A DNA stretch of 64,000 nt, from positions 17,486,001-17,550,000 of the forward strand of contig CM075989.1 in assembly GCA_038087875.1 (NCBI GenBank). Direction: 5' to 3'. The stretch's first letter is position 1. Each line of letters begins with the position of its first letter. Position numbers and translations under genes: made by a program. This DNA is from Malacoraja senta. Taxonomy: Eukaryota. The notes beneath the pieces are model-generated. The model worked only from the letters and a program-made list of their open reading frames with translations, did not search any database and had not been told where the DNA came from. Shown piece by piece: positions 21,801 to 27,800 of this stretch.

Positions 21801-24800
21801 TCCGAGCTATAGGGGGAGGTTGAGTAGGCTGGGTCTCTATTCCTTGGAGCGCAGGAGGATGAGGGGAGATCTTAGAGAGGTGTATAAAATCATGAGAGGT
21901 ATAGATCAGGTAGTTGCAAAGAATCTCTTGCCCAGAGTAGGGGAATCGAGGATCAAGGTGAAGGGGAAAAGATTTAATAGGAATCTGAGGGGTAACTTTT
22001 TCACACAAAGGGTGGTGGGTGTATGGAACAAGCTGCCAGAGGAGGTAGTTGAGGCTGGGACTATCCCAACATTTAAGAAACAGTTAGACAGGTACATGGA
22101 TAGGACAGGTCTGGAGAAATATGGACCAAGTGCAGGCAGGTGGGACTAGTGTAGCTGGGACATGTTGGCCGGTGTGGGCAAGTTGGGCCGAAGGGCCTGT
22201 TCCACATTTTATCACTCTATGACTCTATCTATGACTCTATTCGAAAAAGGTTCGTTACATCCATTGGAATAAAATCAACATTTCAAAAAAATATATCTGC
22301 TGAAGAACTTTAGGCAATTGGATTGACATTGAATCATGGAGTCACAGAGGCCCACCTTTTTCCATGCCATCTAAGTTGGCCTTCTGGGCTAGTTCCATTT
22401 GCCTGCATTTGGTTCATAGCCCTCTAAACCTTTCTCTCTATATATCTGTCCAAATGTCTTTTAAAAGTCATAATTGTCTTCTTCCTCTTGAGATCAAGAA
22501 TGTGTGGGAACCACAAAAGGGGCAGAGTTGGCTGGGGGGGGGGGGTGGTTGATTTGAGATGGCTCATACCCTCTGCCAATGAATGGATTCAAGGTTCTTG
22601 GTGTCATTCCAAAATGCTCCTCCACCTTCAGGGCCATGGGCCAGGATCACAACAGCTGTATCTTTCATCCACCAGTCCAATTTCATTCCAGCCCTAAGAA
22701 GATATCTTCAACCCAGAAATTAGAGTAAGACAGTATTTTGCTCTCTGGATTGTGGCTGTGGAAATGCACTAATGGACATTATTCCTGCACTTATCCTTGG
22801 CTTTTATTTAGATTAACATTTCCAATGAACCAGTGCTTTTAACAGGAGCAGAGACAACGTCCTGTTAAGTCGAAAGCGGGCATGGTAAACAGGGTCTTGG
22901 TGAATTTAAAAGGAGTGATGGCAAAGGGATTTAGATGGAGAATGGGAACAGGAGTCCAGTGAATTTAAAAGGAGGGTGGGAACGGGCCCAGTGAGTACAA
23001 AAAGAGAGTGGAACAAGGGCCAGTAATGTGGGAACGGGCTCTAGTGAATTTCACAGGAGTGCAGGAAGCAGACACAGATGAATATATAAAGACCATTAAA
23101 TGCGGCCTTGGTGAGTTTAACAGGAATGTGGCAAATAGAGCAGTGTGGAATTGATAAAGTCATGGGAAAACAGAGCATTGGTGATTTTATAAAATAATGT
23201 GGGAACAGGGGCCCAGTGAGTTTAACAGGAGGCAATGGGGACCTGGTGGGTTTAACAGGATGGGGGAACAGGGCTCCAGTGGGTTTAACAGAACCAGTTG
23301 AGCCAGATACCAAACCATTGAAACATTCCAAACAATTAGATTGTGGATTAGAGCGGTTTCTCTGTACTTTACTTTAAACATCGTGCTGAATGTGCCAGCA
23401 TTTACACACACACGTGCACGGACGAAAGCTTTATAAAAACAATTACAAAGTAGTTATTTGAAAATCCACTGCATTGGTAAATATTCATGGAGCTAATATA
23501 TAATTCATGCCCATGAATTAATCTTCAGGACCATAGATTGGTCAATGTTCAGTTTGACCAGTTATTAGTGGCTGAGTATAACATTCAAAACTCAGTTATC
23601 TTTGATCAGACTTTACGGGGTTCACCTTGTACTAAATGCTATTCATGTAATACACGATTGTAATCATGTATTGTCTTTCCGCTGACTGGTTAGTACAAAG
23701 TAAAAGCTATTCACTATACCTGGGTACAGTAAACTGTGACAATATACTAAACTAAACGATCCAGATGCTGCCCGAATTGCGTAAGGGTTATGTCCTGTAG
23801 ACCCTTGTGTAAGTCAGATGTTGTAAATCGGAAATGGAAGTGCTTCTGTGCACGTTTAATTTTATAACCCGTACTTTGTATGTACTTTTCTGTACAGCAG
23901 ACACTGTACATGTAAAGAATGAAACACCATCTAATCTGAAGTTGTTGAAATACCTGAAAACTATAAATTTGCAACAAGAAAATAGAAGCAGGCTGAGACA
24001 ATTAGTGCGCACTTATTTTATTTTTAAAGAAAACAATTTATTCTTGTTTAAATCCTAAATTTAAACTTTAGATGCCTTTTTTGGGCCTTTTTAGAACATG
24101 CTTTACACAATAGCTATGTGGGGACTAAACAGATTCAGTTAATGCCATTGAGCCGAAAAACATGATATGCAAACCTACCGAAAATATTAGTTTGCTGATA
24201 AAAAGAGCTTCCAACAATGCCAGAGAATGTTGTCATCACGAGTGATAGGTATAGCTGCAGTCAACTGGTTCCTTGATCATCTGTGGCTGGTCCTGTTTTG
24301 TTCTGGCCTTTACTTACCTCTAGTCCCCCCCCCCCACCCCCACACTACTTTCAGTCTGAAGAAGGGTCACCCATCCTTTTTCTCCAGAGATGCTCCCTGA
24401 CCCGATGAGTTACTCCAGCACTCTGTGTCTATCACCAATTGATATCAATCAGGCCCAAAGTCAATATCTGGGGCAACCTCCTGGATTCTCGTACAAGAAT
24501 CTGCTCAAACAGTAAGTGTTGTGGAAGATAGACACAAAATGCTGGAGTCACACAGCGGGACAGGCAGCATCGCTGGAGAGAAGGAATGGTTGACGTTTTG
24601 GGTCGAGACCCTTCTTCGGACTGATTCTGCAGCCACCTGTTCCTTCTCTCCAGCAATGCTGCCTGACCCGCTGAGTTACTCCATCATTTTGGTTTGAACG
24701 AGTATCCTCAGTTCCTTCCTACACAAGTGTTGTGGAAGAATGAGTTCACTTACTTGTTGTTGTTCTTCAGTTTGATGTGGCCACTGGTGCCAGAATCTCC

Positions 24801-27800
24801 CCATTCTTCAGCCAGGTAAGTTGGGGTATGGGCTCCCCTTGAGCCAGACAGTTGAAAATGGCTGTGGTTCCCACTGGTCTCGATATGGACTGCGGGTACT
24901 GCACAAACTTTGCGGGTGCTAGAACATACAACAGGAAAAGAAAACTCAGCCTGCCGGGTGGACAAGTTTAATCTCCGAATCTGACAACATTGTCCAACTT
25001 CATTTAATGTTTTAAACCACCAAGTGGTTAACACTTTTCTGAATCATGCTTTTACAGATACAACAATGCATCAGAGACTTTTGGACAGACACATGGATTT
25101 GCAGGGAATATAGGGATATGAATTATGTGCAGGCAGATAAGTGTTGGTCTTGGCATCATGTTCGGTACAGACATTGTGGGCCGAAGGGCCTGTTCCTGTG
25201 CAGCGTTAGGATCTGGACCACTGGGTTTTTGGAGACCTCTTGATCTAAGATCATACGATCATAAGTGATAGGAGTAGAATTAGGACATTTGGCCCATCAA
25301 GTCTACTCTGCCATTCAATCATGGCTGATCTATCTCTCCCTCCTAACCCCGTTCTCCTGCCTTCTCCCCATAACCTCTGACACCTGTACTAATCAAGAAT
25401 CTAAGTTCTATGAGTCAGTCTGACGAAGGGTTCCAACCCAAAATATAACCCATCCTTTTTCTCCAGAGATGCTGCCTGACCCACGGAGTTACTCCAACAC
25501 TTTGTGTCTATCAGCATCTGCAGTTCTTTGTTTCTACATCTTATATTTTTCTATTCTCCGTTCAATCTTATGAACTCCTTCAAGACCATCTCTTGAGCAG
25601 GAGCTGGTTTTAATATTTCATGACAGGAGAGATCAGTGTTTACACGAGTCCTGGACCTGTGAGCTTGCCTCATGCATCAATGAAAAATCGATGCACCAAT
25701 ATGTCGCAGGTTTGGAACAGAACTCAATATTCAAGTTATAGTCAGCCTGGGGCCTCTCAACCATGTCAGCCTAGGACTGAACGTTGGTTCCCAAGCAATA
25801 TCCCAGGAAATAAAACCGCTGTTTATGGGAAAGCAGGGGTTGTAAAAGAATTGCAATATTGCATGGACATTGATAGCAAATATATTACAGCCTAGGGGGA
25901 GATGACGGTAAGTGGCAGGTTTGCTTGTTACAGGGTTTTGTCTCACAATGTGATGACTCCTTTACGCTACATGCCCAGGTGAAGCACTGAGTGGTTACAG
26001 GATGTTTCCACGTCATGTTGTATCTCCTCTTGCCTATCTTGACTTGGACCAACCTCCTGCACATCTTCCCATTTTTCCCCTCTGCTTTTCCCTTTTCCTC
26101 CACGTCTTCATACCTCAGCTGGGAACTGCTCAGCTACAGAATTCATGATCTTGAAGGAGTTAATTTGATGAGTGTTTGACGGCACTGGGCCTGTACTCGC
26201 TGGAGTTCAGAAGGATGAGAGGACACCTCATTGAAACTTACTGAATAGAAAGGCCTAGAGAGAGTGAATGTGGAGAGGATGTTTCCATCAGTGGGAGAGT
26301 CCCAGGACCAGTGACCATACCCTCAGAATAAAAGGATGTACCTCTAAAAAGGAGACTAGGAGGAATTTCTTTAGTTAGACTGTGGAGAAACTGTGGAATT
26401 CATTGCCACAGAAGGCTGTGGAGGTTAAGTCAACGTATATTTTTAAGGCTGATTTTTGATTAGCATGGGTGTCAGGGATTATGGGGAGAAGGCAGGAGAA
26501 TCGGGTTGAGAGGGAATGATAGATCAGCCATGATTACATGGCGGAGTAGACATCATGGGCCAAAATGGCCTTATTCTGCTCCTAGAACTTCACGTGGCTC
26601 TGATGGAACCCCTGGGCTTGGGTGTCATTGTGCTGGCAGGGCTCCGTGCTTTGCCCAGCTTAGGATAGTTTGCTCAGTATTAACAAGGGTGCGTTGTTTA
26701 GTGTTTAGTTTAGAGATACAGCGCGGAAACAGGCCCTTCGGCCCATCGGGTCCACACCGACCAGCGATCCCCGCACATTAACACTATCCTACACCCACTA
26801 GGGACAATTTTTGCATTTACCAAGTCAATTAACCTACAAACCTGTACGTCTTTGGAGTGTGAGATGAAACCGAAGATCTCGGAGAAAACCCACGCAGCTC
26901 ACAGGGAGAACGTACAAACTCCATACAGGCAGCACCCGTAGTGGGATCGAACCCGGGTCTCCGGCGCTGTATTCGCAGTAAGGCAGCAACTCTACCGCTG
27001 CGCCACCATGATTGCCCAAAAGTTGTTCTTCATCAATGGCAATGAGGTGTGTGACTATGTCCATTATTCCATAGATAGAGAAGTCTGTGTCTATCTTCAG
27101 TGACGTTCCAGGAACTGTGGCGTCCCTGTAAACTACAGGCCTCCAAAACTACTCAGTGCAAACAGAACCCCCCCCCCCCCTGCACCAATACCCCATCTCC
27201 TACAGCTGGACCAACTCATTTGGTTCAGTTTCCAACTAATTTCCTTGAATAATTTGATTTCATGAAAAACATTGCAATCTGCCTGGTCTCATTCCCCAAG
27301 ACCCCTCTCCTCGACTGAAAGCCAGCACAGATAATGAACTCCTGGAGCCGGTACTGAGACAGTGAGGGTGATGGGTACAAATGGGATCTGAACAGCAGAG
27401 GTCTCTGACCTCCCGTTCAATATCGCACTGTCACCAGCACTCCGCTGTCCCACCAACTGGCCTGAAAATGACCCCGTCCGCTTGGGTTTCCTAAAGGCTT
27501 TGTGTATTTAGCAAGGAGATCCATCCGATTCCAGCAGCACAAACATTCATCTGGAGATAAGTAGGGTTGTATCTCATTCCCTTTTCGCAATGTCATTTTT
27601 ATTAAACACATAGATGATATAGATTATAAAGCAAAAGCCAGCATAAGGAGAGTTAATATTACTGCATTATTAATGCCTCTGTCATCTTCAGCGTACCAGG
27701 TTTAATTATTCATAGCCCTTAATTATTCATGTAATTAAATACACATATCTATTAATTAGATAAAATCAAAAGGAATTTTAAATATTAAGCGACCAGAATT

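Follow-up and report, generated by a model that had tools for sequence, protein, structure and literature searches.

The one-base loss in the IGDCC3 gene found in the window (the whole stretch of 64,000 nt analyzed here) is very probably an artefact of the assembly, and the animal's gene is in all likelihood ordinary and intact. The animal itself most likely lacks the frameshift. We propose that three consecutive C were read as two when the consensus was built, so that the frame shifts on paper only, that the cause was a homopolymer miscount in long reads, and that the assembled individual itself would carry the missing base. The homopolymer-miscount step is inferred. The loss of one C from a run of three is an error type typical of long-read consensus sequences.

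Gene structure and the break in the Ig4 exon

The gene carrying the break is IGDCC3 (Punc), which encodes an axon-guidance receptor and is located on the minus strand of the window, and its identification in the preliminary description was correct. A homology search with the exon at 17713 yielded 481 proteins at E ≤1e-20; the names, partly truncated, of the best 120 of these 481 matches were inspected, and none of them, unnamed and "hypothetical" entries aside, showed another family member (IGDCC4, PRTG, NEO1, or DCC). The nearest protein cluster comprised IGDCC3 of the skates Amblyraja radiata (XP_032906478.1, P0122), Leucoraja erinacea (XP_055517133.1, P0121), and Rhinoraja longicauda (XP_078283298.1, P0124). 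With one unknown base set at the break, the identity of the window product to these proteins was 97.8%, 96.9%, and 95.0%, with 15 of 667, 21 of 667, and 33 of 663 residues differing, respectively. The segments are alike in kind and order, but, unlike the three skate proteins, the window gene is one base short in the Ig4 exon, and its first 122 codons are absent from the window. As its product is identical to none of the three, the window derives from a different skate or a near relation. Four I-set and two fn3 stretches were identified by Pfam in the A. radiata protein. Since the window product aligns with this protein without gaps from residue 123 to the end, it likewise has two FN3 domains after the Ig domains. 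Two FN domains are also mentioned for Punc in bioRxiv 10.1101/2023.06.15.544950.

Twelve coding exons were found in the window, all on the minus strand. The first of them (44238–44382) encodes the first half of Ig2 and is followed by the exons for the second half of Ig2 (41040–41170), the first half of Ig3 (36940–37077), the second half of Ig3 (29277–29435, ending in phase 1), and the first half of Ig4 (24754–24918). Next are the exon of 248 nt for the second half of Ig4 and the first half of FN3-1 (17466–17713), and those for the second half of FN3-1 (16474–16638), the first part of FN3-2 (13342–13530), and the end of FN3-2 (12154–12258). A hydrophobic segment, presumably transmembrane as judged by eye from the translation, is encoded at 9276–9414, the cytoplasmic tail at 7568–7778, and the last coding exon (6605–6814) ends with the natural TGA at 6607–6605. 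The preliminary description had called the 11 exons other than that of Ig4 clean, and indeed those found in the window, from Ig2 onward, are all free of stop codons and begin behind an AG acceptor, with a GT donor following each internal one. For the signal peptide and Ig1 (residues 1–122 of the A. radiata protein), no match turned up anywhere in the 64,000-nt window; their exons presumably sit beyond position 64000. Conserved neighbors such as IGDCC4 would be expected near IGDCC3. The region 44383–64000, where neither a match to the signal peptide and Ig1 exons nor a Pfam family in the long frames tested was found, is probably a single intron of more than 19 kb.

The Ig4 exon (24918–24754), which the exon 29435–29277 leads into in phase 1, is flanked by an AG acceptor and a GTAAGT donor. 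In the window it is 165 nt long, versus 166 nt in the aligned sequencing runs. The as-assembled frame, and only this frame, runs into VATSN and then into a premature TGA (24767–24769, minus strand) 13 nt ahead of the exon end, while the conserved GHIKLKNNN sits in a different frame from that of entry. The following exon 17713–17466 must be entered in phase 2, so 166 nt are required of the Ig4 exon. Insertion of one base between 24786 and 24785 unites the 12 exons into a single open frame of 667 codons extending to the natural stop. All these features, namely the one-base deficit, the premature stop, the phases on both sides, the displaced conserved motif, and the donor, had been reported previously and were reproduced here from the window sequence. 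The break lies at 24786–24787 (minus strand), in the Pro codon ahead of Ser-Gly-His, where the window has two C (GG on the plus strand) and the runs X1, X2, and X19 have three (GGG); the indel therefore falls in a homopolymer run.

Several other features were observed in the window. Very high-copy interspersed repeats, with a summed contig depth of up to millions, occupy positions 24366–24703, 25259–25516, 26451–27010, and 28744–29154; we take them to be SINE-like. Long low-complexity tracts, C-rich or composed of TG, are present without N at 31864–32079, 36317–36768, 57911–57963, and 61889–62245, which fits a long-read assembly without proving it. A search of the window against Rfam gave no matches, and no Pfam families were detected in the 52 long frames examined, a set obtained from 78 by removing 26 that overlap exons or are of low complexity.

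Sequencing runs covering the break

The query 24700–25150 matched 23 public runs, all stored as Logan contigs. Four of them (X1, X2, X19, and X22) were aligned to 24700–29500, and organisms C, D, and E (0.48–0.52 of words) were left out. X1 originates from organism A and contains 0.95 of the sampled words, X2 from organism B, a relative, and X19 from organism F. None of the 23 runs is recorded as RNA, and X19 was classed as such by an automated guess only.

All three runs covering the break contained the extra base. In X1, a 480-nt contig aligned to 24700–25141, and its sole difference from the window over about 443 letters of exon and introns was a G behind 24785, with a depth of 27.9 of 27.9. 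The same G was present in X2 (depth 20.6 of 20.6) and X19 (6.8 of 6.8), in one contig each. The X19 piece is bounded exactly at 24754 and 24918 and comprises 166 letters of the record (53–218), which is the pattern of a spliced transcript. X22, another sample of organism A, had no cover at 24785; its three pieces of 104, 416, and 964 letters showed zero differences from the window. The runs with the extra base appear to include data of the same species as the window. No contig with the two-C form was listed in the three covering runs; as contigs, however, the stored sequences retain just one form of a variable site. The preliminary description had predicted that one base added near 24785 would mend the frame and had proposed raw short reads and RNA-seq as a check; the base was found at the predicted spot in every covering run, it restores Pro-Ser, and its presence in these contigs favors the assembly reading.

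Among the differences listed, X1 departed from the window by three substitutions and one indel in 3291 letters (six pieces of single-copy depth). A second indel was not seen among them, so there is no sign of a generally indel-rich assembly. At 28584, X1 and X2 share a letter that the window lacks; at 28588, X1 is the odd one out, X2 having the window's letter. These substitutions, about 3.8 kb from the break, indicate that the X1 contig, there at least, represents another haplotype; the pattern suggests either that the species has two haplotypes here or that the window contains a wrong base at 28584. The depth of the X1 contig at the break was 27.9, compared with 35–39 for three identical neighbors and 25.1 for another. 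Lowered depth was considered as a sign of heterozygosity and rejected, since a single variant cuts the mean of a 480-nt contig by a few percent only.

The strongest alternative to an assembly error is a real null allele of recent origin, present in the assembled individual as a heterozygote or found in that individual alone, that was created when the C run slipped and whose haplotype the assembler chose. We consider this unlikely, and it is likewise rather improbable that a loss-of-function IGDCC3 allele is segregating in a wild skate population, with the assembled animal probably heterozygous. The null allele keeps its weight because heterozygosity is invisible in contigs, where one of the two forms of such a site is lost, and because X1 differs from the window 3.8 kb away, so that haplotypes vary in the region and X1 possibly represents another individual or haplotype than the assembled one. 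Real one-base deletions too favor short runs, and if the allele were young, no damage would be expected in the remainder of the gene, matching the observation. Mice without punc reportedly have impaired motor coordination, as the title of a 2001 paper by Yang, Li and Mansour has it; they thus survive to motor tests, and a null allele could be tolerated. On the other side, a deletion-bearing contig was found in none of the three covering runs, and X1 is identical to the window at all other 442 positions of its piece. The length of the affected segment is nearly invariant among vertebrates (see below), which speaks for strong constraint. By rough arithmetic, the chance of an indel error in 2005 coding bases is 18% at an error rate of 1e-4 and 2% at 1e-5, and population surveys find true frameshift alleles of any one conserved gene less often than this. 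The preliminary description had left the choice between an assembly indel and a recent or heterozygous null allele; the former gained the support of all three covering runs, and the latter gained none.

The consequences of such an allele can be predicted from the sequence. In the numbering of the A. radiata protein, the break is at residue 357, the Ig4 cysteines are at 336 and 385, and the hydrophobic segment starts from about 624. Translation of the null-allele mRNA would end after about 362 residues. As a rule, a stop codon with exons downstream directs an mRNA to nonsense-mediated decay, and with seven exons downstream of the stop this mRNA would probably be a target. A product escaping the decay would be devoid of the second Ig4 cysteine (385) and of the membrane anchor. 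A search for the frameshifted tail among short proteins gave three candidates, none of them a skate sequence, and two were distant intact exon frames (74% and 78% identity).

Conservation of IGDCC3 and absence of decay

The preliminary description had also proposed to examine the orthologous exon in relatives. The intact motif over the break and the exon junction was present in 43 of 45 cartilaginous-fish proteins, isoforms counted, and the relative X2 has the base. The two misses were fragments of 369 and 39 residues. Eleven of the 43 intact proteins were Logan proteins from contigs of 2.7–4.6 kb, whose size and continuity suggest that they probably represent assembled transcripts. Because the Callorhinchus model P0006 carries a low-quality flag, it may mask a corrected break. 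In vertebrates, the length of the Ig4 segment was constant in 140 of 142 parsed proteins (35 and 38 in the other two), indicating strong constraint on the segment. The pattern left 18 of 160 vertebrate proteins unparsed, these being proteins with variant anchor residues, fragments, and six gene models without the exon. The latter, predicted IGDCC3 of other vertebrates (P0043, P0051, P0101, P0102, P0103, and P0108), probably reflect gaps in the gene models or assemblies.

Elsewhere in the window, the gene bears no sign of decay. No further lesions were found in the 11 other exons, and no relaxed constraint was seen at the protein level. Among 23 cartilaginous-fish sequences, the window product has 3 private residues of 667, and the three named skates have 0, 4, and 15. 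An old pseudogene is excluded by the clean rest of the gene, with which both an error and a young allele are compatible. One of the substitutions was observed in the exon 37077–36940, where the codon at 36983–36985 (minus strand) encodes Met in the window and Val in the other 22 cartilaginous-fish sequences. A CpG transition fits this change, and Met is found there in 4 of the 162 fetched proteins; it is probably a tolerated real substitution.

These data also bear on the suggestion that IGDCC3 has been lost in the species or lineage and persists as a fixed pseudogene, which we regard as highly improbable. Only the window's own sequence is in line with such a loss. Differences from A. radiata are somewhat denser past the break (12 of 434 residues) than ahead of it (3 of 233), but the cytoplasmic tail accounts for most of those past the break, and just two of these are unique to the window. 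A fixed loss is contradicted by the intact X1, with its 95% of sampled words and exact intron match, unless X1 is a different near-identical species; the relative X2 is intact as well, and a second lesion is missing from the 11 exons.

Rescue of a real deletion by alternative splicing, giving a shorter receptor, is the least probable of all: although joint skipping of the Ig4 exon and 17713–17466 is in frame (529 codons) and 24 in-frame combinations of cryptic GT/GC donors with nearby AGs exist, this scenario presupposes a real deletion, the double skip deletes Ig4 and half of FN3-1, each cryptic-site option costs at least 20 Ig4 residues, the seven internal GT sites score no higher than 4.4 versus 5.5–11.1 for the 11 real donors (by a crude matrix derived from the same donors), and the donor at 24754 is intact and used in X19. 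The earlier statement that exon skipping fails to mend the frame thus holds for the Ig4 exon skipped alone and does not hold for its skipping together with the next exon.

Implications and comparison with known systems

As an artefact, the break is an annotation issue only: gene models of this assembly would truncate IGDCC3 or name it a pseudogene, and gene-loss screens should leave it out. If a segregating null allele were real, it would be a further example of genetic load, here in a skate, and could make the function of Punc testable outside mice. Punc binds WFIKKN2 and is described as a candidate mediator of motor-axon attraction in bioRxiv 10.1101/2023.06.15.544950; the allele would then be a natural knockout, in a cartilaginous fish, of a receptor for WFIKKN2. 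Loss throughout the species would be the more remarkable finding, yet X1 contradicts it. No paper title on a loss of IGDCC3 in cartilaginous fish was found by searches that did not pair those terms directly.

The starting point here, a frameshift in a conserved coding exon, is the same as in the validated mammalian gene losses described in PMC7671337. In the account given there, losses were accepted only if the mutation was present in five or more reads with no backing for the ancestral state or was common to sister species. In contrast, the ancestral base is present here in every covering run (3/3, as contigs and perhaps from other individuals), and the lesion is absent from X2 and X19, the runs of organisms B and F. 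The additional lesions and relaxed constraint expected of a lost gene are also missing, with no lesions in 11 exons and the 3 private residues in 667.

The break resembles the consensus frameshifts known from long-read assemblies. For CLR contigs, short frameshifting indels are reported as the commonest errors, and at Q40 frameshift errors remained in less than 3% of genes, according to the data given in PMC8081667. Here, unlike in those assemblies, the cause is inferred. In other respects, as far as described in PMC8081667 and PMC7545148, the frameshifts in long-read vertebrate consensus sequences are of the same kind: one indel of a single base within a homopolymer, in a gene otherwise free of lesions, with other sequence data containing the ancestral base.
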